DNA of 64,000 nt from Acidobacteria bacterium 13_1_40CM_65_14 (GTDB lineage Bacteria > Acidobacteriota > Vicinamibacteria > Vicinamibacterales > CAVVIG01): positions 10,711 to 74,710 of the forward strand of contig MNEX01000136.1 in assembly GCA_001917905.1 (NCBI GenBank). The letters are read 5' to 3'. Below the pieces are notes generated by a model that saw only the letters and a program-made list of their open reading frames with translations, searched no databases and had not been told where the DNA came from. The position numbers and the translations under genes were made by a program. Below are positions 10,709 to 50,726 of the stretch, piece by piece (position 1 is the stretch's first letter; each line of letters starts with the position of its first letter).

Positions 10709-10787
10709 CACGAAAGCACGAACCCGCGAAACCACGAAACGAAACCGGATATCTGTTTCGTGTTTTCGTGTTGTCGTCTTTTCGTGG
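10709..10787. repeat. Intergenic hairpin repeat (CACGAAA-type arms)
   Basis: cacgaaagcacgaacccgcgaaaccacgaaacgaaacc ... gtttcgtgttttcgtgttgtcgtcttttcgtgg. Confidence 0.75.
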
Positions 10788-18977: not shown

Positions 18978-19060
18978 CTCCACCACAGAGGACACGGGGG
19001 ACACGGCGTGGCAAACCTGTTTGGTGAGCAGGTTTGAACCTCCGCGTCCTCCGTGGTAGC
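18978..19060. repeat. Intercistronic hairpin repeat (GAGGACACG-type arms)
   Basis: ctccaccacagaggacacgggggacacgg ... cctccgcgtcctccgtggtagc. Between hscB and hscA. Confidence 0.8.
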
Positions 19061-19066
19061 TAGTTC

Positions 19067-20009: not shown

Positions 20010-20075
20010 TTTTTACTTTGCGGTGGGGCCCCACCCCCACCGCCTGTCGCCGCTCGCCTTGTCGGCTCGCGGCGG
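20010..20075. repeat. GC-rich palindromic element immediately upstream of the iscA start
   Basis: Gene strand: GCGAGCCGACAAGGCGAGCGGCGACAGGCGGTGGGGGTGGGGCCCCACCGCAAAGTAAAAAATG. Confidence 0.8.
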
Positions 20076-25291: not shown

Positions 25292-25906
25292 ATGACCCAC
25301 CTCGGCGGTTGGTTGTTCCGCCACCGCACGATCATTCCGCTTCCGCTCGCGATCGCCGTGCTGCTGCTGCGGATCGGCGAGGCGCCGCCTTCCAAATGGC
25401 TCATCGCAAGCGGGATCGGCCTCACGTTGACGGGCGAAGCGATCCGGTTGTGGGCCGTTCACCACATCGGCGCGATCTCGCGGACGCGAAGCGATCGCCT
25501 CGGCCCGCTCATCGCCGCCGGGCCGTTCGCAGTGGTGCGCAATCCGCTCTATCTGGGGAACATCGCACTGTGGGCAGGGTTTGCGATGGCGGCCCGGCTC
25601 CTCTGGCTGGTGCCGGTCATCGTCGTGCTGCTCGCGGTGGAATATCACGCGATCGTGCGCTGGGAGGAGCAGGTGCTCGAAGCGCGCTACGGTGACGAGT
25701 ATCGTGCGTACGCCGCGCGCGTGCCGCGATGGTGGCCCACGTTCAACCGCGGAGCGCGCAGAACTCGCAGAGAAAACGTGTTCTCTGCGAACTCAGCGAA
25801 CTCCGCGGTTGCTTTCTCCTGGCGCGAGACGCTGTTCAGCGAGCGCGGCACGCTCATCGCCATCGCAGCTGGATTTTTCCTGCTCTGGCTCAAACTTAGA
25901 ACTTAG
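25292..25906 (+). CDS. Isoprenylcysteine carboxyl / phospholipid methyltransferase-family membrane protein
   Basis: GPFAVVRNPLYLGNIALWAGFA ... EEQVLEARYGDEYRAYAARVPRWWP. The C-terminal tail runs through two repeats. ATG at 25292 preferred over TTG at 25265. Confidence 0.75.
   Translation: MTHLGGWLFRHRTIIPLPLAIAVLLLRIGEAPPSKWLIASGIGLTLTGEAIRLWAVHHIGAISRTRSDRLGPLIAAGPFAVVRNPLYLGNIALWAGFAMAARLLWLVPVIVVLLAVEYHAIVRWEEQVLEARYGDEYRAYAARVPRWWPTFNRGARRTRRENVFSANSANSAVAFSWRETLFSERGTLIAIAAGFFLLWLKLRT
25749..25807. repeat. Hairpin repeat (CGCAGAG-type) inside the 3' part of the methyltransferase ORF
   Basis: gcggagcgcgcagaactcgcagagaaaacgtgttctctgcgaactcagcgaactccgc. Confidence 0.7.
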
Positions 25907-25982
25907 AACTTAGAACCTAGAACTTCGAACTCAGAACCCAACCGAGCACAGTTCTAAGTTCTGAGTTTTGAGTTCTTAGTTC
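25893..25982. repeat. Hairpin repeat (AGAACTT-type heptamer arms) between convergent genes
   Basis: acttagaacttagaacttagaacctagaacttcgaactcagaac ... gttctaagttctgagttttgagttcttagttc. Both flanking stop codons lie inside the arms. Confidence 0.85.
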
Positions 25983-29715: not shown

Positions 29716-31020
29716 ATGCCGTCACTCGATGGAATCACCGTGCTCGACCTGACGCGCGTGCTGTCGGGCCCGTACTGCGCGATGATGCTCGGCGACATGG
29801 GTGCGCGCGTCATCAAGATCGAACAGCCAGGTAAAGGCGACGACACGCGCGCGTGGGGGCCGCCGTTTCTGCACCCCAGCGCGCACAAACCGCGCGCTGG
29901 GGACCCCGGCTTCCACCCCAGCGCGCACAAACCGCGCGCTGGGGACCCCGGCTTCCACCCCAGCGCGCACAAACCGCGCGCTGGGGACCCCGGCTTGGAA
30001 GGCGAGAGCGCGTACTTCCTCAGCATCAACCGGAACAAGGAAAGCGTCACGCTCGACTTCAAGCATCCCGAGGGCCGCGCGATCCTCGATCGCCTCATCG
30101 CCAAGAGCGACGTCCTGGTCGAAAACTTCCGTCCAGGCACGCTGGCCAAGATGGGACTCGACTACGCGTCGCTGGCGCCGAAGCATCCACGGCTCGTGTA
30201 CGCGTCGGTGTCGGGCTTCGGGCAGACGGGCCCGCGCCGCACGGAGCCGGGCTATGACGCGGTGATCCAGGCGGAAGGCGGGCTGATGAGCATCACCGGC
30301 GCACCGGACGGTCCGCCGTATCGACTCGGCGTCGCGATCGCGGACATCGTGTCGGGCATGTTTGCCGCGTATGGCGTCGTCACGGCGCTCTTTGCACGCG
30401 AGCGCACCGGCCGCGGCCAGATGGTGGACGTCGCGATGCTCGACGCCGTCGCCGCGCTGCTGACGTACCAGGCCGGCAATTACTTCGCGAGCGGCAACGT
30501 GCCCGCGCGGCTCGGCAATCGCCACCCGAGCATCGTGCCGTACGAGACGTTCGCGGCCGAGGACGGCGAGTTCGTGCTCGCGGTCGGCAACGAAGACTTG
30601 TGGCGCCGCTTCTGCGAGGTGGCCGAGCTCGATCTCGGCGAGCGCTTCGCCACGAATCGTCAGCGGGTCACGCAATACGACGGGCTGCGCCCGCTGATTG
30701 CCGACGCGCTTCGGCGTCACACGCGGCAGTACTGGATCGAGCGGCTGACGGCAGCCGGCGTCCCGTGCGGATCGGTCCGCAATCTGCAAGAGGTGTTCGA
30801 CGATCCACAGCTCGGCGCGCGAGCGATGATCGCCGAGCTCGAACATGCGACGATCGGTCCACTGAAAATGCTCGGCGTGCCGGTGAAGCTGTCGGAAACG
30901 CCCGGCGCCGTGCGGACGCCGCCACCACGGCTCGGCCAACACACGGACAGCGTGCTGCAGCACGATCTCGGTTTCGACACCGACGCCATCACGCGGCTGC
31001 GCGCGCAGAAGGTTGTCTAA
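29716..31020 (+). CDS. Family III CoA-transferase (CaiB/BaiF)
   Basis: LDGITVLDLTRVLSGPYCAMMLGDMGARVIKIEQPGKGDDTRAWGPPF ... SAYFLSINRNKES ... VENFRPG ... SGFGQTGP. Confidence 0.9.
   Translation: MPSLDGITVLDLTRVLSGPYCAMMLGDMGARVIKIEQPGKGDDTRAWGPPFLHPSAHKPRAGDPGFHPSAHKPRAGDPGFHPSAHKPRAGDPGLEGESAYFLSINRNKESVTLDFKHPEGRAILDRLIAKSDVLVENFRPGTLAKMGLDYASLAPKHPRLVYASVSGFGQTGPRRTEPGYDAVIQAEGGLMSITGAPDGPPYRLGVAIADIVSGMFAAYGVVTALFARERTGRGQMVDVAMLDAVAALLTYQAGNYFASGNVPARLGNRHPSIVPYETFAAEDGEFVLAVGNEDLWRRFCEVAELDLGERFATNRQRVTQYDGLRPLIADALRRHTRQYWIERLTAAGVPCGSVRNLQEVFDDPQLGARAMIAELEHATIGPLKMLGVPVKLSETPGAVRTPPPRLGQHTDSVLQHDLGFDTDAITRLRAQKVV
29872..29997 (+). repeat. 3 x 42-bp tandem hairpin repeat, in frame within the CoA-transferase
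   Basis: caccccagcgcgcacaaaccgcgcgctggggaccccggcttc x3. Encodes HPSAHKPRAGDPGF x3. Each unit holds an 11-bp perfect stem, ccccagcgcgc/gcgcgctgggg. Confidence 0.95.
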
Positions 31021-31182: not shown

Positions 31183-31608
31183 ATGGAAACCTCCAACGTC
31201 CGCCAACGACTGCAGCAAACCATCGAGCGCGCCAGGCGCAGCGCGGGCGAGCGGCGCGCGCGCAACGACGAAGCCACGCGCGCCTTCAACGACTTCCTCG
31301 ACCACGTGGCGGTTCCGCTGTTCAAGCAGATCGCCAACGTCCTCAAGATCGAGAACTACCCGTTCACCGTGTTCACGCCGGCGGGCAACGTCCGGTTGAT
31401 GTCCGACAGAAGCGCAGACGACTATATCGAGCTTGCACTGGATACGAGCGACGCAGAGCCGCGCGTGATGGCGCACATCAGCCACAGCCGCGGCCGGCGC
31501 GTCGTCGACGCCGAACAGGTGGTTGGAAGCGGCCGGCCGGAGACGCTCACCGAAGAAGATCTGTTCGCGTTTCTGCTGAAGGAACTGGAACCGTTCGTCG
31601 AGCGGTGA
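31183..31608 (+). CDS. Hypothetical protein
   Basis: 141 aa, coding-like composition. No family recognised. Confidence 0.55.
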   Translation: METSNVRQRLQQTIERARRSAGERRARNDEATRAFNDFLDHVAVPLFKQIANVLKIENYPFTVFTPAGNVRLMSDRSADDYIELALDTSDAEPRVMAHISHSRGRRVVDAEQVVGSGRPETLTEEDLFAFLLKELEPFVER

Positions 31609-31617
31609 CACAACGTC

Positions 31618-31680
31618 AAACGCAGAAACCGCAGAACACGCAGAGAAAGGCTTGCTCTGCGGATTCAGCGAGTTCTGCGT
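31618..31680. repeat. Hairpin repeat (CGCAGAA-type arms)
   Basis: aaacgcagaaaccgcagaacacgcagagaaaggcttgctctgcggattcagcgagttctgcgt. Confidence 0.8.
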
Positions 31681-31698
31681 CGAGCGGTGACACCACGA

Positions 31699-31770
31699 CG
31701 AACGCAAAGGTCGCAAAGGCCGCAAAGCAAGATTTTCTCTGCGGTCTTCGCGGTCTTTGCGTTCTTCGGT
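31699..31770. repeat. Hairpin repeat (CGCAAAG-type arms)
   Basis: cgaacgcaaaggtcgcaaaggccgcaaagcaagattttctctgcggtcttcgcggtctttgcgttc. Confidence 0.8.
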
Positions 31771-31772: not shown

Positions 31773-33950
31773 TTAGGCGAGACGCTCCGCAAACGACGTA
31801 TCGAGACCCTGGCGCTTGAGGAGCGCGAGGAAGCCCGGACGATCGCTCGAACGACGGTAGGCTTCGCGGCTGTCGACGGCGCCGCTCTGGACGAAGCCGA
31901 CGAGCGAATCGTTGAGCGGCACCATCCCGTGCCGCCGTCCGCCTTCGATGGCCATCGGCAGCTGCGACGTCTTGCCTTCCGCCAGCACGCTCGCCACCGC
32001 GGGCGTGTTCAGCAGCACCTCGCGCGCCGCCACGCGTCCGCCGCCCATCTTGTGCAAGAGCACCTGCGCGATGACGCCGCGGAGATTGTCAGCCAACGCC
32101 AGCTGCACCTGACGACGGTACTCCGGCGCGTACAGATCGATGATGCGGTCGATCGCGGCCGCGGCCGTGTGCGCCGAAAAGCCGCCGATGACCAGGCGGC
32201 CCGAGGCCGACGCTTCGAGCGCCACGTTCATCAGGGCGCCCGTGCGCAGATCCTCGATGATCAGGACGTCGGGATCCTCGCGCAGCGCCGCCCGCGCGGC
32301 CGCCAGCAGATCGTCGTCGTCGCCGCGCACCTCGCGCTGGCTGATGAACGAGCTGCCGCGATCGTGGACGATGTTGATCTCGCGCTCGATCGTGATCACG
32401 TGATCGCGCCGTGACCGGTTGATCAAGTCGACGTAGGCCGCCATCAGCGTGCGCTTCCCGCTCGACCGGGGACCGGCAACCACCACCAGGCCCTCCGGCT
32501 CGATGGCCAGCGCCTGAATCGCGCGCGGCAGACCGAGCTGATCGACCGACACCGTGCGCATCGGCATGAGGCGAAAGACGCCGCCGGGTCCGCGATGATC
32601 GCGGAAGCTCATGCACCGCACCCGACCGACATCCTCGATGTCGACGATCCATTCCGTCGTCGCGCCCGTCCGCAGCGCTTCGTGGCTGCGCTCCGGCATC
32701 AGCGTCAGCAACAGCGACTCGACGTCGCGCGCCGTCAGCTCCGCTTCGCCGTCAAGCCGCTGCAGCTCGCCGTCGACGCGGACCGACGGCTGGGCGTCCG
32801 ACGAGAGGTACAGTGTCGACGCGCCACGCGCGGCCGACACGCGCAGCAGGCGATCGAGGCCGAATACCGGCGGTTCGACGGTTGGCGACGCGGGCGCATC
32901 GCTCCGGATCGGATTCCGTGAGATCGGCAAGACGACCGCGGGCTGCGGCGGTTCGGCGCGCGGCGGCGGTTGCGCGGGACGCAGCGGCCGTGCGGCTCGC
33001 TCCTGCGCCACCGGCGGGGGCGGGGGGGCGGCCACGGGTGGTGGCGGCGCGGCGGCCATCGGCGGAGGCGGCGCGGCGGGAACGCGCGGCGACTCCTCAC
33101 GCGGCGTGAGCGGCGGTGTGTCGCGAACGAGCGGCTCGACGCGCGGCGGCGCCTCGCGCGGCGTGAGCGGCGGTGTGTCGTGAACAACAGGCGCGACGCG
33201 CGGCGGCGCCTCGTACTCCGGCTCGACGTGCTCCGGTTCCGGCTCGGCGTACTCCGGCTCCTCGGTAGCCGTTCGTTCGTACGCCGGCGAGTCCGCGTCC
33301 ACCGCGACGTCCTCCGACTCGAACGACGTCGTCGTCTCGCTTGGCCAGAGCTGGGTCGCGTCAGGCAACAAGAGGTCGTCGCCGTTGGCCTCGTCGAACT
33401 CTTGGACGGACGCGACCGCCTCTGCTTCATCAACAGCGCGAGCCTGGAGATGTTCGACGGCCTGCGCACGCTTTGTCTCCTCCAGCAATTCCAGCGGCAC
33501 GAGATCGTCATCGTGGTGTGGGAAGGAAGCGACCGTCGGCGGAGCGGCAACACCGGCCGGCTGCGCGGCCTGTGGCGCGGACGGCGCGCCGGGAGGCGGC
33601 GCAAAGAATTCCTCCGGCACGTGATCTTCGTCTGGCACACGTCGCCGGCGAATCTCCACCCAGACGTCGTCTCCACCGCGCGCCGCGACGACCGTGAAGT
33701 GCTCACCCGGAAACTCCGGCATCGCCTGCAGCTCGTACTGCACGGCGCCGAACTCGTCGAGGGCGCTTTGGAACTCCGGGGGCAGCAGCTGATTGACGAT
33801 GCCGTTGACGGCATCGAGCGTCAGACCACGGCTGGCGAGATCGGTCTGTCCCGTGGACCCGACCACGTACGGCTTGTCGCCGGCGTGCATCACCAAGGCC
33901 TCGCCATCCACGTGGATGACCGCCTGGAGCAGAGACGGAACGATACTCAT
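31773..33950 (-). CDS. PilT/PilU-like (type II/IV secretion ATPase fold) protein with degenerate catalytic motifs, duplicated N-domain and Pro-rich linker
   Basis: C-terminal half aligns to PilT (GLVVVAGPRSSGKRT, ITIEREIN, DPDVLIIEDLRT, GFSAHT). The N-terminal 105 aa resemble a second PilT N-domain. The central region is PPP-rich. Start at MSIVPSLL (33950). Confidence 0.75.
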   Translation of the reverse strand: MSIVPSLLQAVIHVDGEALVMHAGDKPYVVGSTGQTDLASRGLTLDAVNGIVNQLLPPEFQSALDEFGAVQYELQAMPEFPGEHFTVVAARGGDDVWVEIRRRRVPDEDHVPEEFFAPPPGAPSAPQAAQPAGVAAPPTVASFPHHDDDLVPLELLEETKRAQAVEHLQARAVDEAEAVASVQEFDEANGDDLLLPDATQLWPSETTTSFESEDVAVDADSPAYERTATEEPEYAEPEPEHVEPEYEAPPRVAPVVHDTPPLTPREAPPRVEPLVRDTPPLTPREESPRVPAAPPPPMAAAPPPPVAAPPPPPVAQERAARPLRPAQPPPRAEPPQPAVVLPISRNPIRSDAPASPTVEPPVFGLDRLLRVSAARGASTLYLSSDAQPSVRVDGELQRLDGEAELTARDVESLLLTLMPERSHEALRTGATTEWIVDIEDVGRVRCMSFRDHRGPGGVFRLMPMRTVSVDQLGLPRAIQALAIEPEGLVVVAGPRSSGKRTLMAAYVDLINRSRRDHVITIEREINIVHDRGSSFISQREVRGDDDDLLAAARAALREDPDVLIIEDLRTGALMNVALEASASGRLVIGGFSAHTAAAAIDRIIDLYAPEYRRQVQLALADNLRGVIAQVLLHKMGGGRVAAREVLLNTPAVASVLAEGKTSQLPMAIEGGRRHGMVPLNDSLVGFVQSGAVDSREAYRRSSDRPGFLALLKRQGLDTSFAERLA

Positions 33951-34060
33951 TTTCTTGACGAGCGCGGGGCCCCAGCCCCGCGCCTGACGCCCTCGAGGCT
34001 TTCTCCAATGCTCGCGGGGCCCCACCCCCGCTCGCCTCGCTCGCGCATTCGCACTCCCTC
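33951..34060. repeat. Two GC-rich palindromic elements upstream of the PilT-like gene
   Basis: gcgcggggccccagccccgcgc and gctcgcggggccccacccccgctcgcctcgctcgc. Confidence 0.7.
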
Positions 34061-35317: not shown

Positions 35318-35410
35318 TTTTTACTTTCTCGCGGGCCGCGCCATGCTCCATCGCGCTTGGGGCCCCACCCCCAAGCGCTTTCGCTCGCGCATCCGCGCTC
35401 GCTCAGGCTC
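35318..35410. repeat. GC-rich palindromic element immediately upstream of ubiE
   Basis: Gene strand: ...GCGCTTGGGGGTGGGGCCCCAAGCGC...CGCGAGAAAGTAAAAAATG. Confidence 0.75.
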
Positions 35411-35498: not shown

Positions 35499-36176
35499 AT
35501 GCTTCCCTCGAGCACCGTCGAGAACTACCTGAAAGCGATCTACCAGGGCCAATCCGCGTTGCCGCGCGACCAGCGGCTCGTGTCGATGGGACAGGTCGCG
35601 ACCGCGCTGGGCGTCACGCCCGGCACCGCGACGACGATGGTGAAGGCGCTGGCCGAGTCGGGGCTGGCGGAGTACGAGCCGTACAGCGGCGTGCGGCTCA
35701 GCGCGGCGGGCGAAAAACTCGCGGGCCTCGTGCTCCGACGTCACCGTCTCGTCGAGCTGTTTCTCGTCAAGGTGATGGGCATGAGCTGGGCGGAAGTCCA
35801 CGACGAGGCGGAGCAACTCGAGCACGTCGTGTCGGAGCGATTAATCGAGCGGATCGACGAGATGCTCGGCCGCCCGACGCACGATCCGCATGGCGATCCG
35901 ATTCCGAACCCTGATGGCGCCATCAATGCGAAAGATCTCGACAGCCTGCTGACGTGTCCGGTCGGCACGCCGCTGAAAGTGACGCGTGTCGCCGACCAGG
36001 ACCCGGCGTTTCTCCGATTCATCGAGAACAACGACCTCAAACCGGGCCAGCGCGTCGAAGTCGAGACGCGCGATCCGGCCGCCGATTCCGTGATGCTGCG
36101 CGGCAAAGACCATCGTCGCATCACGATCGGCGCACGCGCCGCCTCGAAGCTCCTCGTCGAAGTCGAGCCCGCCTGA
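35499..36176 (+). CDS. DtxR/IdeR/MntR-family metal-dependent repressor
   Basis: STVENYLKAIY ... VTPGTATTMVKAL ... RRHRLVELFL ... HDEAEQLEH. C-terminal SH3-like/FeoA domain. Confidence 0.9.
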   Translation: MLPSSTVENYLKAIYQGQSALPRDQRLVSMGQVATALGVTPGTATTMVKALAESGLAEYEPYSGVRLSAAGEKLAGLVLRRHRLVELFLVKVMGMSWAEVHDEAEQLEHVVSERLIERIDEMLGRPTHDPHGDPIPNPDGAINAKDLDSLLTCPVGTPLKVTRVADQDPAFLRFIENNDLKPGQRVEVETRDPAADSVMLRGKDHRRITIGARAASKLLVEVEPA

Positions 36177-36180
36177 CTTG

Positions 36181-36333
36181 TGGCGTGTCTTCCGAATTAC
36201 GAGCGGGCCGCTCCGCTCGCACCCCACCGCGCAGGCGTGCGCGGTGGGGACCCCGCGCTCGCACCCCACCGCGCAGGCGTGCGCGGTGGGGACCCCGCGT
36301 TGTCGCGGCCCGAAAACCGCGATTGAAGGCTTG
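36181..36333 (+). repeat. Composite REP array (conserved ends + 2 x 42-bp hairpin units)
   Basis: tggcgtgtcttccgaat..cgggccgctccgctcgcac + (caccccaccgcgcaggcgtgcgcggtggggaccccgcgctcg)x2 + ttgtcgcggcccgaaaaccgcgattgaaggct. Second copy at 47258-47457, inverted. Confidence 0.9.
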
Positions 36334-36368
36334 TTGTGAATAGTACTTAATCAGCTCGTATGGACGAC

Positions 36369-37550
36369 TCAGAGTGACTTCAGGAAGGCCAGCAGCGTAT
36401 TGCGCTGTTCAGAGGAAAGCGACAGGAAGCGGCTCCGCGCCGACAAAGCCTCGCCACCATGACGGACGATGGCATCCTCAATCGTCGCGGCCGTGCCGTC
36501 GTGCAGGAGCGGGCGGCGCAACCGGAGACCCCACAGCGCCGGCGTCCTGAACTCCTGCGGTCCGGCGGCCTCCTGCCGAATACCGTCGCCGGTCTCAACG
36601 TCGTGCAGGAGCAGATCCGAGAAGAGCGGTACTGTCTTTCGGTGGAAGACAGGGTTCGAGCTCGGACCCGTCTGCAGCGAGGGAACGTGGCACGCGGCGC
36701 AGCCAACGGCGCCGAACACCGTCTCGCCCGCGCGTACGGACTCGTCAATCACGCCGCGCCCGACGGGCGCCAGAAACTTCATGAACGATTCGAAATTGTC
36801 GATGCCGCGGCGCCGAGTTCGAGGGTCAGGGCGATCTTCGGGATCGGGGATCCGGTCGCACAGCTTCATCTGCTCTTTCGAAATCCCGAACGCGAGCTCC
36901 TCGGGGAAGAGATCGTTCGTAATGCCCATTTCATTCCGGTAGGCATCGGCGCCGAACGCGAGCAACGTCGCGTGTTGGGCCTTCCAGCCGAACCTGCCGA
37001 CGCGGCGGTGGCCGGTCGCGATATCGACGATGATGGCAGCGCGTCCGCTCACGCCGTCGCGATCGCGGTCGTCTGCATCGTCGAGCGCGATCAGGACTTC
37101 GTCGGGAATCGCTTCCACCAGACCGGCCCCAAACAACGGGATCGGCACGCGCCGGGAGATGACGTTCGCCTCGGGCGGAATAGTCGGCTGGCACGTGTGG
37201 GTGGGAATCGAGAAGATCTGAAACAGCGAACCTGAGGTGGGCGCCAACTCCACGAACTCGCCTCGTTCGTCGCGACGCGCGGCCCTGACCTCGGCGACCA
37301 CGCCGGCGCCGCCGATGGCCGGCACGCTGTGGCAGACGGCGCAGCTCGAACCGTTGAAGGCCGGACCGAGCCCATCCTCGGCGGTTTCAACTTCTGTGAA
37401 GTCCTTGAGTCCGAGCCTGAATTCCTCGAATTCCGACCCGTTGATGCCCGGCAAGGGATCTCCCGGCAGTGGCCGGCCGTTCTGGCCTGCCACGTCGATC
37501 CACAGCAACGCGACGTACGCGCAGGTTGTCAACGCAATCAGGCGCTTCAC
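36369..37550 (-). CDS. Di-haem c-type oxidoreductase (DUF1111 / putative thiol oxidoreductase-peroxidase family)
   Basis: Signal peptide. Two CxxCH motifs (CAVCHSVP, CAACHVPS). Family-typical FGWK and LLHD motifs. Confidence 0.85.
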   Translation of the reverse strand: MKRLIALTTCAYVALLWIDVAGQNGRPLPGDPLPGINGSEFEEFRLGLKDFTEVETAEDGLGPAFNGSSCAVCHSVPAIGGAGVVAEVRAARRDERGEFVELAPTSGSLFQIFSIPTHTCQPTIPPEANVISRRVPIPLFGAGLVEAIPDEVLIALDDADDRDRDGVSGRAAIIVDIATGHRRVGRFGWKAQHATLLAFGADAYRNEMGITNDLFPEELAFGISKEQMKLCDRIPDPEDRPDPRTRRRGIDNFESFMKFLAPVGRGVIDESVRAGETVFGAVGCAACHVPSLQTGPSSNPVFHRKTVPLFSDLLLHDVETGDGIRQEAAGPQEFRTPALWGLRLRRPLLHDGTAATIEDAIVRHGGEALSARSRFLSLSSEQRNTLLAFLKSL

Positions 37551-37554
37551 CGTT

Positions 37555-37926
37555 TCACTCTCCTACGGTAATCGTCCCGCGCATGAAGGTGTGTCCCGCG
37601 CCGCACATCTTCGAGCATTCGAACGTGTAACGGCCAGGCGTATCGGCGCGGAAAATCAGCGTCGCCTCACCGCGGCCGCGCTTCGGGATGATCGCGTTGA
37701 AGCCGGAGCCGACGATGCGAAACCCATGGTTCGTATCCTCGCTTCGCAACCGGAGCTCGACGATCGTCCCGCGCTTCACTTTGATGTGCGACGGTGTAAA
37801 GGTGAACCGCTCGGCGGTCACTCGAATCACCGTCGGATCCTGAGAAAAGCTGGAAGGCGACACCAACACCACGAGCAGCGCCGCACAGGCGAGCGAGCCG
37901 CCGCGCAACCATGTTGTCCTGGTCAT
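37555..37926 (-). CDS. Secreted cupredoxin-fold protein with CuA-like ligand pattern
   Basis: MTRTTWLRGGSLACAALLVV signal ... TNHGFRI ... YTFECSKMCGAGHTFM (C-x3-C-x3-H-x2-M). ATGA overlap with the upstream porin gene. Confidence 0.75.
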   Translation of the reverse strand: MTRTTWLRGGSLACAALLVVLVSPSSFSQDPTVIRVTAERFTFTPSHIKVKRGTIVELRLRSEDTNHGFRIVGSGFNAIIPKRGRGEATLIFRADTPGRYTFECSKMCGAGHTFMRGTITVGE

Positions 37927-39272
37927 CAGAACCACCAGCCGAGACCGATGTTGAGACTGTCGACGCTCCGAAACAGGGAGCTGCGATTCCGGATGATCGA
38001 GTAGTCGATCTTGAAGACGACGTCGGGATCGGGAAAGTACGAGCCGCCAAACACCCAGGCGGCCCGATCGAACTGCTTCAACGGGAGCACGCCTTCCGGC
38101 ATTTTGAATTGTGTGTCGAAGTTCTCGTAGCGCACGAACGCTGCAACGTCGTGCCGGATCCACGGCAACGGCCGAATCGAGGGCTCGACGTAAAACCCAC
38201 GCATCTGCCGCGCGATGTTCGGACTCACGCCGGCCGTCCGCTGCAAAAAATCGTTCAAGTCGGCCGCGCCATCGATGAAGACCTGCGCGAACTCGCCGCG
38301 CGCCGCAAAACGTCCGGCGCGGTAGCGACCGTCGAATTCGAACAGGCCGACGCGCGAATCGACGCGGCGAAAGTTGAAGCCGGTCTTGCCCCGCCAGAAG
38401 CTCGTTCCGAGGTTCAATCCCGGGACACCGACGTACTCCAGCCGCCCCGTGTGCGCGACGTTGCGGACGTTCGAGGCGAAGCCTTTCTGTGTCGCCTCGT
38501 GCAGCCCCTCCTCGGCGGTAATGCGTGTGGCGTCGAGTGGCGCCATGAGGTACGCGCGGTACTGCCAGCCGGCTCCGACCGTCCCATGAACGCCCACGCC
38601 GGCATCGAACCATGTCGTCGGGATGATGAACGTGTCGACGAACGGCCGCTCGACGCCGTGGAACGACGGCGGTTCGTGCCGCTCGTTGATGATCCCAACG
38701 GGCGCCAGCACCATTCCCGCGCGAAAATTGAGCTCCGGTTTCACCTTGAAGTCCAAGTACGCCTGCTCGAGCTCCACCTCGCCTGACGCCTCGAGACCGC
38801 TCACGAAGGCGTGCTCCAGTTCGAGCTCGCCGACGAAGCGAAGCCTGTCGCTGAAGCTGTGGTTGAACAGGAGCACGAACCGGTGGAAATCGAGCTGGGC
38901 GTCCTCGTGCTCAGGTTTGTTGAGATGAAAATCCATGTACCCAGAAATCGGCCCGGTGCGCGAGACCGTCGAGCTCTCTTCGACCGACGTGGGTGGCCCC
39001 AGCGACGGCGGCATCTGTTGGGCAGGGGCCGGCTCGCGCGGTGCCGGCGGCGGCGCGAGCGGCTTGGTCGCCGCAGCTTCCAATTCGCGGAGCCGCGTTT
39101 CGAGCTCTCGGACACGGCGCTCGAGCTCCTCGATTCGCGTCTGGCCCGGGGAGGCGACAGGACTCTGCGTCGCGGGAGGATCAGGGGTCTGCCCCGACAC
39201 CGGGCCGCCGACCAGCAGCACGATTGAGATTGCGACCAACACCGCAATGCGTCGCCTCATAGCGTTCATCAC
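37926..39272 (-). CDS. Outer-membrane porin-like beta-barrel with N-terminal coiled coil
   Basis: Signal peptide. RIEELERRVRELETRLRELE. Alternating beta-strand pattern. C-terminal ...NIGLGWWF. Confidence 0.7.
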   Translation of the reverse strand: MMNAMRRRIAVLVAISIVLLVGGPVSGQTPDPPATQSPVASPGQTRIEELERRVRELETRLRELEAAATKPLAPPPAPREPAPAQQMPPSLGPPTSVEESSTVSRTGPISGYMDFHLNKPEHEDAQLDFHRFVLLFNHSFSDRLRFVGELELEHAFVSGLEASGEVELEQAYLDFKVKPELNFRAGMVLAPVGIINERHEPPSFHGVERPFVDTFIIPTTWFDAGVGVHGTVGAGWQYRAYLMAPLDATRITAEEGLHEATQKGFASNVRNVAHTGRLEYVGVPGLNLGTSFWRGKTGFNFRRVDSRVGLFEFDGRYRAGRFAARGEFAQVFIDGAADLNDFLQRTAGVSPNIARQMRGFYVEPSIRPLPWIRHDVAAFVRYENFDTQFKMPEGVLPLKQFDRAAWVFGGSYFPDPDVVFKIDYSIIRNRSSLFRSVDSLNIGLGWWF

Positions 39273-39553
39273 TCGTCAAAAGCGTATTTTTGACTACACG
39301 AAAACTACGCGAAAACGCATTCTATATCAGGACGGGGGCTCTTGGAGGCGGGCTTTGCGGCTGAGCGGTTAACGCGCGACGAGTTGGACGTGATCGCGAA
39401 AATCAGGCGTGCGCGCGTTCGAGGACGTCGCTTATTACTTTCCAACGCGCATTCGTGATCCGCGACCGGGCGGCGTCGTCTGCTCGCAGCCCTAAGGGCT
39501 GCGCCACATCACGATCGAGGCAGATGAGCGCGGCGCTATAAGATCGACGCTCA

Positions 39554-40414
39554 ATGATTCGGGCGCTGGCGGCTGCATCGCTGTGCGTGATCCTCGCCGC
39601 GGTTTCGGCGCACGCGCAGGAGACCATCGAGCCGGATCGGCCTGACGTCACCAACGGCACGCACATCGTCGACATCGGTCTTCTCCAGATCGAGATGGGT
39701 GTTCTGTTCACGCGCGCCACACCCGGTCAGCGCGCGTTCGGATCGCCGTTCACGGCACGCGTCGGTCTCACCGATTGGCTCGAAGTGCGGTTCGGCACCG
39801 ATGGTCTGCTGACCCAGACCGACGGCTTCACGCACGTCACCGGCATCGGCAACATGCAGGTCGGCGGTAAGCTGCGCCTGTGGGCTGATCCAGGAGGCGC
39901 GCCGGTGGTGTCCATTCTGCCGACGGTCAACGTGCCAACGGCGAGCGCCGAAAAGGGCCTCGGTTCGGGCTCGGCGGACTACACGCTGGCGATGCTGACC
40001 GGCGCGGACATCGGCCGGCATGGACACGTCGACGTCAATTATGGGATCGGGAGCATCGGCGTCGGCGACGGCAAATCGCACTTCCTCCAACACGTCGTGT
40101 CGGTCTCGGCGAGCGCGGCAGCTTCGGATAACTGGAATCCGTACGTCGAATCGTTTTGGTTTTCGCGTGAGGAGTCGGACGGCGGGGCGGTGACGGCGAT
40201 TGACGCCGGCGCGATCTACCAGATCGGCGCGCGCTACGCGCTCGACGGCGGAGTGCAAGTTGGCGTCAGTGACAACGCGCCCGCCATCGCCGCATTCGGC
40301 GGCGTGTCGGTCATCGTCGGCGAGATTCTTGGCAGCCACGGCGCTCGCGGGCGTCAGAGGCAGATTCAACGACGAGCGGCGCGCAGAGCGCCGCGTTCTT
40401 CGACGAGCAAGTAG
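39554..40414 (+). CDS. Outer-membrane protein, MetA-pathway (phenol degradation)-like transporter family
   Basis: MIRALAAASLCVILAAVSAHAQE signal. IEPDRPDVTNGTHIV... is typical of this family. The basic C-terminal tail overlapping czcA is doubtful. Confidence 0.6.
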   Translation: MIRALAAASLCVILAAVSAHAQETIEPDRPDVTNGTHIVDIGLLQIEMGVLFTRATPGQRAFGSPFTARVGLTDWLEVRFGTDGLLTQTDGFTHVTGIGNMQVGGKLRLWADPGGAPVVSILPTVNVPTASAEKGLGSGSADYTLAMLTGADIGRHGHVDVNYGIGSIGVGDGKSHFLQHVVSVSASAAASDNWNPYVESFWFSREESDGGAVTAIDAGAIYQIGARYALDGGVQVGVSDNAPAIAAFGGVSVIVGEILGSHGARGRQRQIQRRAARRAPRSSTSK

Positions 40415-43400
40415 AGCGTCGGCAGCACCAGCAGCGTCAACAGGGTCGCCGATACGAGTCCACCGATCACGACGACCGCCAGCGGCTTCTGCACTTCCGA
40501 TCCGATGCTGTGCGACAGCGCCATCGGCATCAACCCGAGCATGGCGAGCAGCGCCGTCATCAGCACCGTCCGGAGACGAACCGTGGCGCCCGTCGTCACG
40601 GCGTCGCGCGGCGACAGGCCCTGCGCACGCAGGTCCGCGAAATAGCTGACCATCACGACGCCGTTCAGGACCGCCTGGCCGAAGAGCGCGATGAACCCGA
40701 TGGCCGCCGACACGCTCACGTGGATGCCGGTGAGATAGAGCGCGACGATGCCGCCGATCGAGGCGAGCGGAATGTTGACGAGGATGATCGACGCGTTCTT
40801 CACAGAGCCGAACGCATCGAACAGCAGGATGAAGATCAGGAACACGCTGACCGGCACGATGACGGCGAGCCGCGTCATCGCGCGCTGCTGGTTCTCGAAC
40901 TCGCCGCCGAACGTCGCGTAGTAGCCGGGCGGAAAGGTGATGCCGCGGGCAACCTTGTCGCGCATCTCCGCGACGATCCCCCCCATGTCGCGGCCCCGGA
41001 TGAAGACCCCGATGGCGGAGACGCGCAACCCCGCCTCGCGGCTGATGTTCATGCTGCCGCCGCGCACCGAGATGTCGGCGACATCGGCGAGCGGCACGCG
41101 TGCGCCCGAGGGCGTGTCGACGAGCACGTCCCGAATCGCCGCCATGTTCTTCCGATCTTCTTCGCGCAGCCGGACCGCGACGCCGTAGCGCCGGTCGCTT
41201 TCCCAGATTTCGGTCGCGACTTTTCCGCCGATCGCCGTTTCGATGACGTCCTCGACATCCGCGACGTTGAGGCCGTAGCGGGCCGCGCGGCCGCGATCGA
41301 CCTGAATCTGGAGCTGCGGCACTTCGCCGGCGCGGTCGATGAACGCCCGCGACACGCCGCGCACGCCCGACACGGCGTGGAGCACGTCGTTCGCCTTCTG
41401 CCGGAGCGTCGCCGCGTCGTCGCCGAAGACCTTGATGACGATCTGACCGTCGATCTGCGAGATGCTCTCGAGCACGTTGTCGCGGATCGGCTGCGAGATC
41501 GCGGGCTCGAGGCCCGGAATCTCGTTGATCGCGTCTTCCATTTGCGCCGCGAGCTCCTCACGGGTGATGTTGCGCGTCCACTCCCCCGGCGCCTTCAGGT
41601 CGACGAAGAACTCGCACATGTTGATCGGCTTGGGATCGGTTCCATCTTCCGGCCGTCCCGCCTGGGAGATCACCTGCGTGACTTCTGGAAACCGCCGGAG
41701 CAGGCTCCTGACGCGGCCGACAATGCGTGACGCTTCAGAGACCGACACGCTCGACGGAAGCGTCAGGTTCACCCACAGCGTCCCTTCGTTCAGTTCGGGA
41801 AGGAACTCGGTGCCCAGGCGCGGCACGAGCGCCAGCGCCGCGACCAATCCCGCCACCGCGGCGCCGATGACGAGCGCCGGGCGCCGCAGCGAGCGATCGA
41901 GCGCTCGACGGTAGACGCGCGTGAGGAACTCGACGAGCCGATTGTGCTCGTGCTTCGCGCCATGACCGAGCAGCCAGAAACACAAGAGCGGCACGAGCGT
42001 CAGCGAGAAGATGAGCGACCCGACGAGCGCCGACGTGACCGTGTACGCCATCGGCGCGAAGATCCGTCCCTCGTGCCGCTGCAGCGTGAAGATCGGAATG
42101 TGCGCGACGATGATGATGAGCATCGAGAACAGCGTCGGCCGTCCGACCTGCACCGTCGCATCGAGGATCGCGCCACGCACCGACTCGCGATCGTCGGTGC
42201 GGCCGTGCTCGGCCAGCGTACGGAACACGTTCTCGACGACGATGACCGCGCCGTCGACGATGATCCCGAAGTCCATCGCGCCGAGCGAGAGCAGGTTCGC
42301 GGGAATGCCGCGGATGCGCAGGCCGATGAACGTCGACAGCAGCGCGAGCGGAATGACCGCCGCGACAATGCCGGCCGCGCGGCCGTTTCGCAGAAAGATG
42401 TACAGCACGAGCGTGACGAGCAGCGCGCCTTCGAGCAGATTGCGAAACACGGTCGTCAGCGTCGTCGCGATGAGGCGAGAACGGTCGTAGTACGGCACAA
42501 TCCGGACGCCTTCGGGCAGGACCGACGCGTTGAGATGCTCGACGCGCGATTTCACTTCATCGAGCACCTCCGATGGATTCTCGCCCTTGCGCATCAACAC
42601 GATGCCTTCGACGATCTCGTCCTCGTCGTTGCGGCCGACGAGACCCTGACGAGGCACCGCGCCGATCCGGACGTCGGCGATATCGCGAATCAGCAGTGGC
42701 GTACCTCCGTGTTCGGCGACGACGATCGAGCCGATGTCGTCCGCCGATCGCAGCAGTCCGACGCCGCGAATCAGGTACTGCTGCTCTCCTTGTTCGAGGT
42801 AGTTGCCGCCGGCGTTGGCATTGCCGCGGCCGAGCGCCGTGAACACCTGCTGCAGCCCGACGCCGTACGCGCGCATGCGTGCGAGATCGACGTTCACCTG
42901 GTACTGCTTGATGAAGCCGCCGCGACCGACCACGTCTGCGACGCCCGGCGCCATCTTCAGATTCCGTTCGACCACCCAGTCTTCGATGCCGCGTAGATCG
43001 GTCGGACTCGCGGTGTCGGAGACCAGGCGGTAGCGATACAACTCGCCGACCGGCGTCGACAGCGGCGCGAGCTGCGGCTGAGTGTCCGGCGGAAGGTCCG
43101 CCTGCTGGAGCCGTTCGAGCACACGCTGACGCGCGAAGTAGTCGTCGACCTGATCGTCGAACGTGACCGTCAGGTACGACAGTCCGAATTGGGTGTGCGA
43201 GAACATGCGCACCGAGTGCGGCACGCCAGCCAGCGCGATCTCGAGCGGAATGGTGACCTGCTTTTCGACTTCTTCCGCCGCGTGTCCCGGCACGAGTGTG
43301 ATCACCGTGGCCTGCACGTCGGCGACGTCGGGAAACGCTTCGACCGGCAGCGATCGAAACGCGACGATCCCGCTGGCGATGAAGAGCACCGTGATGAGCG

Positions 43401-43449
43401 CCAGGAAGAGCGGCTGATACAGCGCGAACGACACGAGTCGGCGGACCAT
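40366..43449 (-). CDS. czcA: Heavy-metal efflux RND permease (CzcA/CusA family)
   Basis: MVRRLVSFALYQPLFLALITVLF..VEAFPDVADVQATVIT ... 1027 aa, 12-TM RND pattern. Confidence 0.93.
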   Translation of the reverse strand: MVRRLVSFALYQPLFLALITVLFIASGIVAFRSLPVEAFPDVADVQATVITLVPGHAAEEVEKQVTIPLEIALAGVPHSVRMFSHTQFGLSYLTVTFDDQVDDYFARQRVLERLQQADLPPDTQPQLAPLSTPVGELYRYRLVSDTASPTDLRGIEDWVVERNLKMAPGVADVVGRGGFIKQYQVNVDLARMRAYGVGLQQVFTALGRGNANAGGNYLEQGEQQYLIRGVGLLRSADDIGSIVVAEHGGTPLLIRDIADVRIGAVPRQGLVGRNDEDEIVEGIVLMRKGENPSEVLDEVKSRVEHLNASVLPEGVRIVPYYDRSRLIATTLTTVFRNLLEGALLVTLVLYIFLRNGRAAGIVAAVIPLALLSTFIGLRIRGIPANLLSLGAMDFGIIVDGAVIVVENVFRTLAEHGRTDDRESVRGAILDATVQVGRPTLFSMLIIIVAHIPIFTLQRHEGRIFAPMAYTVTSALVGSLIFSLTLVPLLCFWLLGHGAKHEHNRLVEFLTRVYRRALDRSLRRPALVIGAAVAGLVAALALVPRLGTEFLPELNEGTLWVNLTLPSSVSVSEASRIVGRVRSLLRRFPEVTQVISQAGRPEDGTDPKPINMCEFFVDLKAPGEWTRNITREELAAQMEDAINEIPGLEPAISQPIRDNVLESISQIDGQIVIKVFGDDAATLRQKANDVLHAVSGVRGVSRAFIDRAGEVPQLQIQVDRGRAARYGLNVADVEDVIETAIGGKVATEIWESDRRYGVAVRLREEDRKNMAAIRDVLVDTPSGARVPLADVADISVRGGSMNISREAGLRVSAIGVFIRGRDMGGIVAEMRDKVARGITFPPGYYATFGGEFENQQRAMTRLAVIVPVSVFLIFILLFDAFGSVKNASIILVNIPLASIGGIVALYLTGIHVSVSAAIGFIALFGQAVLNGVVMVSYFADLRAQGLSPRDAVTTGATVRLRTVLMTALLAMLGLMPMALSHSIGSEVQKPLAVVVIGGLVSATLLTLLVLPTLYLLVEERGALRAARR

Positions 43450-44618
43450 CAGCTCGACCGTTGTTGTTCTTCCTGCCGGAGCAGGAGCACGCCGTCCACG
43501 ACCACGCGGTCTCCAGCGCGGAGACCCGACAGCACGCCGCGCTCTGTCCCTCCACCGCTCACCACCTCGATCGGCCGTCGCGCGAATCGTCCCGGGCTGA
43601 CCTCGACGTACACGTACGAGCGGCCCGTCTCCATGAAGATCGCGGCGGTCGGAACCGTCAGCGCGCGCTCGTGCGCGTCGACGTGGAGGTCGATGGCCGC
43701 GAACATCTCGGGCTTGAGCCGTCCCCGGGGATTGTCCACGCTGACGCGGACCTTTGCCGTACGCGTCGCCGGATCGATCGCAGGGCTGATGTAATTGACG
43801 CGGCCCTGAAACCGATCGCCCGGATACGCGGCCGTCGTAATCGACGCCGTCTGCCCGACGGTCACCAGACGGAGATCGCGCTCGAACACATCGCCCACGA
43901 CCCACACCGTGTCGAGATTTCCGACGGTCAGGATCGGTGTGCTGTCGCTCTGCACGAACTGCCCTTCGGTGACCTTCCGCTCGATCACGACGCCGGCGAT
44001 CGGCGACACGATTGGCACGCGGCCCCTGACGGCATCGACGGGGGGGAGGTCGTCGTGTCCGGCCAGTCCGAGCATGCGCAGCGCCTCCTCGGTGCGCGCC
44101 ACCCGCGCGCGCGCCTTCGCGAGATCGTTTTGCGCCTGCTGCAGAGCCATCCTCGATGCGGCTTCATGTTCGAACAGATCCTGCGTCATCGCGGCGTTCT
44201 TCTCAGCGAGCTCGAGGTCCTTGCGGCCCTCGATGTGCTCGCCGACGACCGCGGCCGCTTCCCGGCTGCCGATCGCACACAGCATCTGCCCTTTGCGAGT
44301 GGTGTCGCCGACTTTGACGCGCAGGTCGACGACGCGACCGGCCAGCGGCGCCAGCACGTGCGCGACGCGGTCTTCGTCGAACTGGACCTTGCCCGCGATG
44401 GCCAGCGCGCTGGCCGTGTCGCGCTCGGCGATCGTGTCGACCCTGATCGAGGCGCGCATCTTCGGGTCGAGGGCAATCGTCCCGTCGCCCTCGGTCGGCG
44501 CGGCCACGACCCCTGTGTCGGGCGCGGCGCGTCCCGTCTCGGGATGCCCGCTGCACGAAACAGCGACGAGCGTGGCGGCGAGAACCGCCGCGCGTGCGTG
44601 CGTGTCAATCGTGCTCAC
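43449..44618 (-). CDS. RND efflux periplasmic adaptor (CzcB/CusB-like)
   Basis: GTG start gives VSTIDTHARAAVLAATLVAVSC (lipobox). ...VSPIAGVVIERKV.EGQFV... GTGA overlap with the upstream gene. Confidence 0.85.
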   Translation of the reverse strand: MSTIDTHARAAVLAATLVAVSCSGHPETGRAAPDTGVVAAPTEGDGTIALDPKMRASIRVDTIAERDTASALAIAGKVQFDEDRVAHVLAPLAGRVVDLRVKVGDTTRKGQMLCAIGSREAAAVVGEHIEGRKDLELAEKNAAMTQDLFEHEAASRMALQQAQNDLAKARARVARTEEALRMLGLAGHDDLPPVDAVRGRVPIVSPIAGVVIERKVTEGQFVQSDSTPILTVGNLDTVWVVGDVFERDLRLVTVGQTASITTAAYPGDRFQGRVNYISPAIDPATRTAKVRVSVDNPRGRLKPEMFAAIDLHVDAHERALTVPTAAIFMETGRSYVYVEVSPGRFARRPIEVVSGGGTERGVLSGLRAGDRVVVDGVLLLRQEEQQRSS

Positions 44619-45874: not shown

Positions 45875-45895
45875 CGATCCACCTTGTCCGAAGTT

Positions 45896-45931
45896 GGGAC
45901 TTAGAACTTGGAAGTCAGAACTTAGAACGAG
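45896..45931. repeat. Tandem heptamer tract (AGAACTT-type), single arm
   Basis: gggacttagaacttggaagtcagaacttagaacgag. Confidence 0.6.
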
Positions 45932-46461: not shown

Positions 46462-46506
46462 GTTCGGGATGATACCGCACTTGGGTCGTTTCGATTTTCC
46501 TTATGC

Positions 46507-46971: not shown

Positions 46972-47225
46972 TTGAGCAGCTGCGAGCCAGGCGGACGATG
47001 GCGCCTCCGGCGCTTCGGCGTGTCCGGATCCCGAGGCATGATGCGATCGGCCGCGCAGAGCAGTGCTGACAGCCGCAAGTAGATCAGATCGATGCCGGCG
47101 ACGCCGAGCGTCACGTCGCCGTCGGCCATCACGCCTTTGTTCAGCAGCTCGTCGATCAGATCGAGCACGGTCGATTCGGGCGTCTCGAGCACGACGTCGG
47201 CGACGCTTCGATCCCGTTTTGCCAT
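46968..47225 (-). CDS. GvpA/J-family small gas vesicle protein (GvpS/M-like)
   Basis: TVLDLIDELLNKGVMADGDVTLGVAGIDLIYLRLSALLCAA. 4-nt overlap with gvpK. Confidence 0.75.
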   Translation of the reverse strand: MAKRDRSVADVVLETPESTVLDLIDELLNKGVMADGDVTLGVAGIDLIYLRLSALLCAADRIMPRDPDTPKRRRRHRPPGSQLLK

Positions 47226-47257
47226 CTAGTGGACCGTATCCGCTGAAGGAGTACTAG

Positions 47258-47457
47258 TCACAACGAGCCTTCGACCGCGATTTTCGGGCCGCGACAACGC
47301 GGGGTCCCCACCGCGGCAGCCGCGTTGGGGTGCCGTCGCGGGGTCCCCACCGCGGCAGCCGCGTTGGGGTGCCGTCGCGGGGTCCCCACCGCGCACGCCT
47401 GCGCGGTGGCGTGCGAGCGGAGCGGCCCGGTAGTCATTCGGAAGAGACACGCCACTA
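47258..47457 (-). repeat. Composite REP array (conserved ends + 3 x 39-bp hairpin units), inverted copy of 36181-36333
   Basis: The reverse complement starts tggcgtgtctcttccgaat..cgggccgctccgctcgcac and ends ggggaccccgcgttgtcgcggcccgaaaatcgcggtcgaaggct. Period 39 (ggggtcccc at 47301/47340/47379). Lies between gvpL and the gvpS-like gene. Confidence 0.9.
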
Positions 47458-50420: not shown

Positions 50421-50422
50421 AA

Positions 50423-50713: not shown

Positions 50714-50726
50714 GACAGGAACATGA

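Follow-up and report, generated by a model that had tools for sequence, protein, structure and literature searches.

A gene for a family III coenzyme A (CoA)-transferase from an uncultured soil acidobacterium carries, in frame, three tandem copies of a 42-bp hairpin whose relatives also occur between genes. We analysed the surrounding 64,000 nucleotides (the window: contig MNEX01000136.1 of Acidobacteria bacterium 13_1_40CM_65_14, order Vicinamibacterales) together with related loci from other assemblies. The explanation that we favour, with a probability of about 0.72, is that a palindromic module resembling repetitive extragenic palindromes (REPs) and the Rickettsia palindromic elements (RPEs) is tolerated in a loop of the enzyme, has been amplified as an in-frame variable-number tandem repeat (VNTR) and persists as a passenger whose hairpin maintains itself. 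The insert itself is old and usually present as one copy, and what is recent is the triplication alone.

Three hairpin units in frame in a CoA-transferase gene

Tandem Repeats Finder (TRF) delimited the array at positions 29872-29996 (period 42, 3.0 copies, 100% matches, score 250), with the consensus CACCCCAGCGCGCACAAACCGCGCGCTGGGGACCCCGGCTTC. Each unit is laid out as a perfect 11-bp stem (CCCCAGCGCGC / GCGCGCTGGGG), a 7-nt loop (ACAAACC) and an 11-nt tail (ACCCCGGCTTC). When compared to dinucleotide shuffles, the array folded with high stability both as RNA (-88.5 kcal/mol, z = -8.3) and as DNA (-57.2 kcal/mol, z = -9.0). It is read in frame as HPSAHKPRAGDPGF twice followed by HPSAHKPRAGDPGL, residues 53-94 of the protein, between GDDTRAWGPPFL and EGESAYFLSINRNK, and predicted peptides such as AGDPGFHPSAHK span the unit junctions. 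The 3′ end of unit 3 (GGCTTG/GAAGGC, the slash marking the boundary of the unit) matches that of the single ancestral copy and is the same in a single-copy contig (L165). The same three copies were present in an independent Joint Genome Institute (JGI) assembly (L161), 99.6% identical to the window over 13.2 kb. A CRISPR array was ruled out, since the units abut without spacers and the array is translated in frame. Rfam gave no match at any of the arrays in the window, and a promoter and terminator scan returned nothing relevant; the units have no terminator-like T run and are not intrinsic terminators.

The host gene matches CoA_transf_3 (Pfam PF02515) along the full length of the profile (positions 1-366 of 366, E 1.7e-136) and its product is identical to OLC47547.1, from the metagenome-assembled genome (MAG) Acidobacteria bacterium 13_1_40CM_65_14. 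The nearest species-level genomes for this protein were MAGs of Vicinamibacterales, the best at 84%. Across 75 homologues, 106 residues are invariant. No variation was seen across 104 aligned sequences at residue D181 in ...EPGYDAVIQAEGG... (GYD motif), which we take to be the equivalent of Asp169, the catalytic residue of formyl-CoA transferase. By alignment offsets, Trp47 would correspond to Trp48 of Oxalobacter formyl-CoA transferase, the residue mutated in the solved structures 2vjp and 2vjq according to their titles, and the Trp equivalent to Trp48 presumably lies near the active site. The insert follows five residues after the conserved GDDTRAW motif, ahead of the ESAYFLSxNRNK helix. The nearest solved structures, the Brucella formyl-CoA transferase (10uh, E 1e-97) and human SUGCT (9br6), align up to ...WGPP/WSVP and restart at ESAYF/ASTYF, with nothing opposite the insert. 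An earlier note on this DNA, made from the letters alone, had placed the repeats in frame at a short variable loop, and relatives do have a four-residue link there: more than 60 of the 80 species-level genomes listed carry FLEG, FLDG, FVEG or similar, and three of the 80 carry 13-14 extra residues at exactly the insert site.

A first AlphaFold2 run with 75 close homologues gave a predicted local distance difference test (pLDDT) score of 57 and was discarded, and a second run, in which a more distant subfamily was added to the alignment, yielded a model with a mean pLDDT of 79.4 and a predicted template modelling (pTM) score of 0.79. The model has the family fold, with template modelling (TM) scores of 0.79-0.86 against the Brucella enzyme and human SUGCT. 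Residues 53-95 scored below pLDDT 50 and were without secondary structure; the insert runs between a short helix (43-46) and a second one (99-104), and the adjoining 10-residue blocks reached pLDDT values of 92 and 90. The prediction is thus that the insert makes a disordered excursion at a point where relatives have a connection of four residues. The surface location of the loop, also proposed in the earlier note, is thus supported by a model and not by measurement.

Copy number varies within one species

Five independent contigs, 98.3-99.6% identical to the window over 4-18 kb, were compared at the array. One copy was found in L165 and one copy plus a footprint (CACCCCGGCTTG) in L164, three copies in the window and in L161, three copies plus a 12-bp footprint (CACCCCGGCTTC) in L163, and four copies, the first two of them diverged, in L162. 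All variants are in frame, and protein lengths of 410, 434, 438 and 448 aa occur in the 90% cluster, as does one of 406 aa that was called as 398 aa from a later start. The 12-bp footprint is what remains of a unit once 30 bp are lost between ACCCC(GG), the direct repeats on either side of the hairpin, and a comparable remnant (CACCCGCG) occurs in an intergenic copy (L163, position 13750). Every internal junction reads GGCTTC/CAC and the last unit ends GGCTTG/GAA; these common junctions indicate that the arrays descend from one duplicated ancestor. In addition, A-T, G.T and G-C forms of one stem pair segregate among the copies of this species. The tandem expansion is species-specific and polymorphic, and it has the properties of a coding VNTR: a period divisible by three and one, three or four copies, with or without the 12-bp footprint, within one species. 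A frame-neutral change of copy number had been expected from the 42-bp period, and the range of one to four copies bears this out. Two 341-aa products of the same protein cluster (P0121 and P0133) start directly after the array, which means that assemblies or gene calls sometimes break at it.

Stem pairing and peptide drift among orthologues

The evolution of the stem was followed at the DNA level in 14 orthologous single-copy inserts and in the variant copies from the window species, which gave a covariation alignment of 19 sequences. The upper stem is GCGCGC/GCGCGC in most orthologues (peptide PSA..RAG), TCGCGC/GCGCGA in L166 (PIA..RDG) and GCGGGC/GCCCGC in L083 (PSG..PAG), and it has two compensated pairs in L169 (GCGGAC/GTCCGC, PSG..SAG) and three in L167 (CCGGCC/GGCCGG, PTG..AGG). 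Across the alignment, 88.5% of the cells were paired and double-sided changes occurred at 4 of the 11 pairs (9 cells). The covariation score was 0.160, as compared to 0.066 in shuffles, none of which reached the observed value in 500 trials, and it was 0.055 or less when the partners were slid.

Codon positions told the same sequences apart by region. Among the 14 orthologues, the flanking codons (36 + 36) had pairwise identities of 0.93, 0.96 and 0.67 at positions 1, 2 and 3, respectively, indicating that the flanking protein is under purifying selection. The values for the stem codons were 0.86, 0.74 and 0.79, without coding periodicity, and identity at the third codon positions of the loop was 0.29. 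Amino-acid identity was 0.90 in the flanks and 0.59 in the insert. As the stem lacks the codon-position pattern of its flanks, the constraint lies at the nucleic-acid level and not at the peptide level. A test at the peptide level used 70 distinct inserts, in which the two inner codon pairs were reverse-complement-compatible in 65 and 64 of the 70, when shuffled codon pairs gave 43.6 and 58.1 and none of 2000 shuffles reached the observed counts. Three residues of the insert are nearly fixed among homologues, Pro, Gly and Pro at positions 2, 10 and 12; they are the CCCC, GGGG and CCCC runs of the DNA family, which are present in non-coding copies too.

At one stem pair, 11 of the 19 sequences have a mismatch, A.C, on the sense strand. 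It corresponds to a GCT to GCC change in an Ala codon, synonymous and towards G+C-rich third positions, and in some copies pairing has been regained through an AGC (Ser) to GGC (Gly) change. Read on the antisense strand, this pair becomes a G.U wobble, so either strand may be the one that matters. Homogenisation between copies of the family was considered as the cause of stem conservation and rejected, each copy having its own stem sequence. These comparisons indicate that the stem-pairing constraint acts on the nucleic acid and that the peptide drifts. The earlier note had argued that the hairpin itself is under selection from a single G:C versus C:G difference between the gene unit and the unit at 36 kb. 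That difference is present as described, and covariation, the non-coding codon pattern and the peptide-level test all speak for a constraint on the hairpin; selection as its only cause does not follow, as hairpin-templated repair also pairs changes.

Members of the repeat family outside the gene

Two further arrays were reported by TRF, one at 36214-36299 (2 x 42 bp) and the other, on the opposite strand, at 47298-47393 (2.5 x 39 bp). The 10-mer GGGGACCCCG occurs eight times in the window, where 0.14 occurrences were expected, and is confined to the three arrays. A covariance model (R1) built from the in-gene units only matched the intergenic units of the window over their full length and in consistent orientation, with 28-41 bits: the units at 36220 and 36262 scored 40.9 bits each (E 1.7e-8), that at 47377 scored 37.2 bits and those at 47338 and 47299 scored 28 bits (E 4e-5). 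The intergenic arrays had been assigned to the same family as the gene units by eye, an assignment that R1 upholds with E values from 1.7e-8 to 4e-5. In the family, present at three loci in the 64-kb window, CACCCC is followed by an upper stem of 6-7 bp that varies, then by a loop and the complementary arm, and last by GGGG(A/G)CCCCG. Its members have in common CACCCC, an A/T pair, the GGGG(A/G)CCCCG end and often the loop ACAAxCC, the upper stem being copy-specific; on one strand they run from CACCCC... to ...GGGGACCCCG, on the other from CGGGGTCCCC... to ...GGGGTG. In a scan of 342 kb of related loci, R1 found two hairpins, both in L012 (2568-2706), which are inverted, 62 nt apart and located between the 3′ ends of two genes (CACCCCACGGCGC-ACAATCC-GCGCCGTGGGGGCCCGG and its partner); the CoA-transferase of L012 has no insert.

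The intergenic units of the window belong to two inverted composite elements of about 200-230 bp that are 84-90% identical to each other (Table 1). The neighbours of the 36-kb element are convergent genes, for an Fe-dependent repressor and DHOR. In L163 (13661-14018, contig 99.3% identical to the window), this element is tandemly duplicated, one copy having a single hairpin unit plus footprint and the other two units, so that the intergenic arrays are polymorphic too. The two elements bracket an 11-kb block (36372-47225) with genes for DHOR, a cupredoxin, a 448-aa protein, Phenol_MetA_deg, AcrB/OEP efflux and a 300-aa protein. Relative to L166, the DHOR-cupredoxin part is reversed and both flanks are collinear, which suggests an inversion by recombination between the inverted elements.

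Insertion site and history

Gene order around the insert is conserved, the CoA-transferase being preceded by a glutaredoxin-like gene, which is on the other strand, and followed by a gene of 139-142 aa (141 aa in the window) and then T2SSE. This synteny identifies the insert-bearing genes as orthologues. The orthologous insert always lies between the same two codons and is 42 bp long, or 39 bp in one subgroup; the empty site reads TTTCTC/GAAGGC and the filled site TTTCTG/CACCCC...GGCTTG/GAAGGC. A single copy (e.g., YPSAHSPRAGDPDV) was present in 106 of 144 close metagenomic homologues from Vicinamibacterales, and a scan with an alignment of insert-bearing segments recovered at least five insert-bearing loci among the 80 metagenome loci listed. 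The economical reading is one ancient insertion in the ancestor of a Vicinamibacterales subgroup. On a neighbour-joining tree of the 144 homologues with the insert masked, at least 12 presence/absence changes were needed, implying that the insert has been repeatedly lost or exchanged. Of the 36 differences that set one insert-free allele (P0129) apart from the window protein, 32 lie within the first 155 residues, and judged by this distribution the allele is clearly a mosaic or a chimeric assembly; recombination, or chimeric assembly, can in this way remove the insert. Other insert-free alleles may have arisen by precise deletion.

Other repeats and RNAs in the window

A second in-frame palindromic insert was observed in a gene for an ArsA-like ATPase. 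About 23 residues (..TPERESLRSSARSSARGGGAPRAS..) are encoded by its hairpin (GCGCGTGGGG-CCCCAC-CCCCACGCGC) together with short repeats next to it; neither the L166 orthologue nor the first half of the ATPase itself has these residues. A second family of small hairpins consists of a 5-6-nt variable stem plus GGGG, the loop CCCCAC, and CCCC plus the complementary stem, and resembles a unit-to-unit junction of the first family when this is read in the other register. Two of its copies are located about 30-40 nt upstream of minus-strand start codons, and these start codons are preceded by a common motif, AAAGTAAAAAATG. Long intergenic hairpins have arms made of tandem 7-9-bp units (e.g., AACTTAG x6 facing AGTTCTG x5) and are more A+T-rich than the genome. 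Dispersed palindromic repeats of about 97 nt contain 9-bp sub-repeats (GGACACGGAGGA-like), and a further dispersed family is formed by CGCAGAGAC/CGCAGAAC 9-mers and includes two 82-nt repeats in tandem, located just downstream of the 141-aa gene next to the CoA-transferase. The T2SSE ATPase gene, which was mapped from L163, contains tandem repeats with periods of 24, 57 and 21 bp; these are multiples of three and may represent a further in-frame VNTR. The structured RNAs that Rfam reported are listed with the other features in Table 1.

Table 1. Positions of the array, its host gene and the other repeats and RNAs of the window
Feature	Position	Strand	Remarks
Family III CoA-transferase gene, SUGCT/FCT-like, host of the insert	29716..31020	+	open reading frame, 434 aa
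Hairpin unit 1	29872-29913	+	encodes HPSAHKPRAGDPGF; covariance model 60.6 bits
Unit 1, 5′ arm	29874-29884	+	
Unit 1, loop	29885-29891	+	
Unit 1, 3′ arm	29892-29902	+	
Unit 1, tail	29903-29913	+	
Hairpin unit 2	29914-29955	+	identical to unit 1
Hairpin unit 3	29956-29997	+	final base G instead of C; encodes ...PGL
Composite element	36174..36372	+	left flank, two 42-bp family units (36220-36256, 36262-36298), right flank
Second copy of composite element, inverted	47225..47457	-	between convergent genes; three family units: 47377-47413 (36-kb type), 47338-47371 and 47299-47332 (39-bp type)
ArsA-like ATPase gene	48233-50371	-	
In-frame palindromic insert of ArsA-like gene	48775-48860		
Second small hairpin family	20020-20043, ~34016-34040, 35356-35381, 48779-48804		
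Long arrayed-arm hairpins	25893-25982, 50328-50438, 50726-50809, 10709-10786, 3150-3230, 45896-45928, 62210-62258		intergenic
Dispersed ~97-nt palindromic repeats	1958-2054, 5457-5553, 18978-19064, 49325-49409		
Dispersed 9-mer family	12636, 25748, 31596-31759, 56068-56132, 61199-61265		
T2SSE ATPase gene	~31785-34037	-	
Tandem repeats inside T2SSE gene	33005-33261		
Bacterial small signal recognition particle (SRP) RNA	2102-2200	-	78.7 bits, Rfam
Cobalamin riboswitch	7394-7584	+	59.4 bits, Rfam

Origin of the array and competing explanations

In the history that we favour, the CoA-transferase gene of an ancestor of a Vicinamibacterales subgroup would long ago have acquired one hairpin of the family, placed where the codons for ...PPFL meet those for EG..., and would have kept it as 14 extra codons tolerated in a loop. 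In the window species, the copy would have been duplicated head to tail and then expanded or contracted in 42-bp steps, probably by replication slippage or unequal recombination between copies, favoured by the hairpin, and loss of the hairpin core between its flanking direct repeats would leave the 12-bp footprint. As every step is a multiple of three, the enzyme stays in frame. Translation would add 14 residues per copy, rich in Pro, Gly and His, as an unstructured excursion that the enzyme probably tolerates rather than benefits from. Upkeep of the stem could be due, in the first place, to hairpin-templated correction or to a residual interaction with the mobilising machinery of the family and, in the second place, to selection acting on mRNA or single-stranded DNA in its folded form. 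Quasi-palindromes are known to undergo templated correction within a strand (PMC7202029), a mutational process that would produce paired changes without selection. We gave more weight to a passenger because the insert is dispensable in many close relatives and because one stem position is mismatched in most orthologues.

Several observations weigh against this history. The copy numbers rest on short-read metagenome assemblies, and the insert-bearing protein is a predicted product. Comparison of empty and filled sites showed no target-site duplication; at most a 2-nt TG is repeated, and it is absent in other orthologues. Neither a GTAG nor a CGTC tag was found at either end of the stem-loop, and no transposase or mobilising gene was linked to the family within the 64 kb, which were not scanned gene by gene for a REP-associated tyrosine transposase (RAYT). 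Copies are sparse outside the window species: R1 had no further match in 552 kb of more distant related loci, and the label of dispersed repeat family rests on few loci. Finally, the stem is still paired at a divergence that has brought identity at the flanking third positions down to 67%. This is not obviously to be expected of a purely passive passenger, and the hairpin may have a function.

Such a function is the substance of an alternative that we regard as unlikely, though deserving of attention, in which the hairpin is a selected cis-acting element within the coding region. As a structure in the mRNA it would slow ribosomes or determine the half-life of the transcript, or else it would be the site of an RNA- or single-stranded-DNA-binding protein, the peptide being a by-product and the copy number tuning the effect. 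Compensatory stem changes across orthologues, in step with drifting loop third positions and a changing peptide, are what such an element would leave, and since each copy has its own stem sequence homogenisation does not explain the pairing. The G.T intermediate that segregates in the population lies on the sense strand, and the intergenic members are located at the 3′ ends of convergent genes, like transcribed REPs (PMC3733652). However, the insert is dispensable, with at least 12 presence/absence changes among the 144 homologues and more than 60 species lacking it, and the A.C mismatch affects the sense strand at one stem position in 11 of 19 sequences. Nor does the element have an Rfam match or a terminator-like T run, and nothing ties copy number to a phenotype.

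A further possibility, which we hold to be doubtful, is that the hairpin is under long-term purifying selection and represents a previously undescribed Vicinamibacteria family, marked by a CCCC/GGGG clamp and an ACCCCG tail, that is recognised by a dedicated protein. This protein might be a mobilising enzyme with precise insertion and excision, or an RNA- or single-stranded-DNA-binding regulator. Such recognition would explain why stems covary while peptides drift, why the insert has cleanly appeared or disappeared at least about 12 times among close homologues and why a second gene in the window has an in-frame hairpin.

It is very improbable that the 14 residues form an ordinary functional loop of a CoA-transferase subfamily, with the palindrome and the likeness to intergenic sequences arising as by-products of G+C-rich codons. 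The segment is kept in most of a large subgroup with its Pro, Gly and Pro nearly fixed, and it follows five residues after the Trp that, by the inferred offset, aligns with Trp48 of formyl-CoA transferase. However, the insert is much less conserved than its flanks in amino-acid identity (0.59 vs 0.90), the second codon positions of the stem are less conserved than the third, and residues change in reverse-complementary pairs. The fixed Pro, Gly and Pro coincide with nucleotide runs that non-coding copies also have, and the model gives the insert no structure. An origin of the three copies in faulty assembly, or a host gene turned into a pseudogene by the repeat, both raised as objections in the earlier note, is scarcely credible: all data come from short-read metagenomes and the 341-aa entries begin right after the array, as expected from breaks at a repeat, but two independent assemblies contain an identical three-copy array, the sequence-distinct copies in L162 and L163 cannot come from simple collapse or expansion, every variant is in frame, the flanking codons keep their purifying pattern (0.93 / 0.96 / 0.67) and 106 residues are invariant across 75 homologues.

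Comparison with known repeat systems

In-frame palindromic repeats in genes are established for the Rickettsia RPEs and for GTAG/CGTC REPs in Opitutus, Thauera, Thioalkalivibrio and others (PMC3733652, PMC10969869), where intragenic REP clusters encode 20-82 residues (PMC3733652, PMC10969869). The CoA-transferase insert, which we read as a tolerated passenger module, adds to these a new family in Vicinamibacteria, an in-frame tandem array with intraspecific copy variation and footprints, and a quantitative account of stem maintenance in a coding context. Palindromic repeats would in this way shape enzymes in an abundant uncultured soil phylum, beyond Rickettsia and a few Proteobacteria. The natural series of 0, 1, 3 and 4 copies plus footprints offers a test of tolerance for a loop beside the CoA/substrate-binding N-terminal motif. 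A coding stretch that evolves by the rules of nucleic-acid pairing and not by those of the protein also bears on how selection is told apart from palindrome-templated repair. In practice, the array is a strain marker in metagenomes, and a break point for short-read assemblies and gene callers.

Among the known systems, RPEs are similar in being small palindromic repeats that lie in frame in housekeeping genes, are compatible with the fold and also occur in non-coding DNA (PMC10969869, PMC3733652). The insert shares the fold-compatible, in-frame position in a housekeeping gene, and it has neither the RPE sequence family nor a Rickettsia host. RPEs are mostly about 100-150 bp long, the short ones being CGTC-tagged, whereas here the unit is 42 bp long, comes from Acidobacteriota, has no tag and has other termini. 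It also forms a tandem in-frame array with copy-number variation within a species, and its stem is kept by compensatory changes across orthologues, of which we found no description for RPEs (PMC10969869, PMC3733652).

The likeness to intragenic REPs (Opitutus terrae, Thauera, Thioalkalivibrio, R. conorii; Di Nocera et al. 2013, PMC3733652) lies in the short G+C-rich stem-loop, 20-40 bp in REPs, which are located mostly between convergent or co-directional genes and in a minority of cases inside open reading frames, singly or clustered (PMC3733652). The 42-bp family is likewise found between convergent genes. A GTAG or CGTC tetranucleotide defines the two REP superfamilies (PMC3733652), and the 42-bp unit has neither at either end; it keeps instead a CCCC/GGGG clamp at the stem base and an ACCCCG tail, with an upper stem that varies by copy, and a link to a RAYT is not established. 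REPs often exceed 100 copies per genome, while the 42-bp family was counted only in the 64-kb window (three loci) and in related loci. The inverted L012 hairpins, 62 nt apart, resemble the doublet of a REPIN, and the family is apparently inherited vertically within its lineage, as in REPIN-RAYT systems. REPINs, however, are many near-identical copies served by one RAYT, in contrast to the few copies, differing stems and direct tandem arrays found here; no RAYT was seen in the 64-kb window, which was not scanned gene by gene for one.

Coding VNTRs or minisatellites share the period that is a multiple of three and the variation in copy number among strains without loss of frame, but here the unit is a strong hairpin from a family also present outside genes, and the host is a cytoplasmic metabolic enzyme and not a surface protein. 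MITEs (miniature transposable elements with inverted repeats; Correia, ERIC, BOX, RUP) are also short, non-autonomous repeats with inverted ends that can be fused in frame to open reading frames. The array differs from them in the absence of a target-site duplication, in a unit of 42 bp, below the usual size of MITEs, and in its head-to-tail arrangement, which is atypical of them. The case therefore works like the in-gene repeats of the RPE and REP type but stands outside those sequence families, with no tag, other termini and another phylum.

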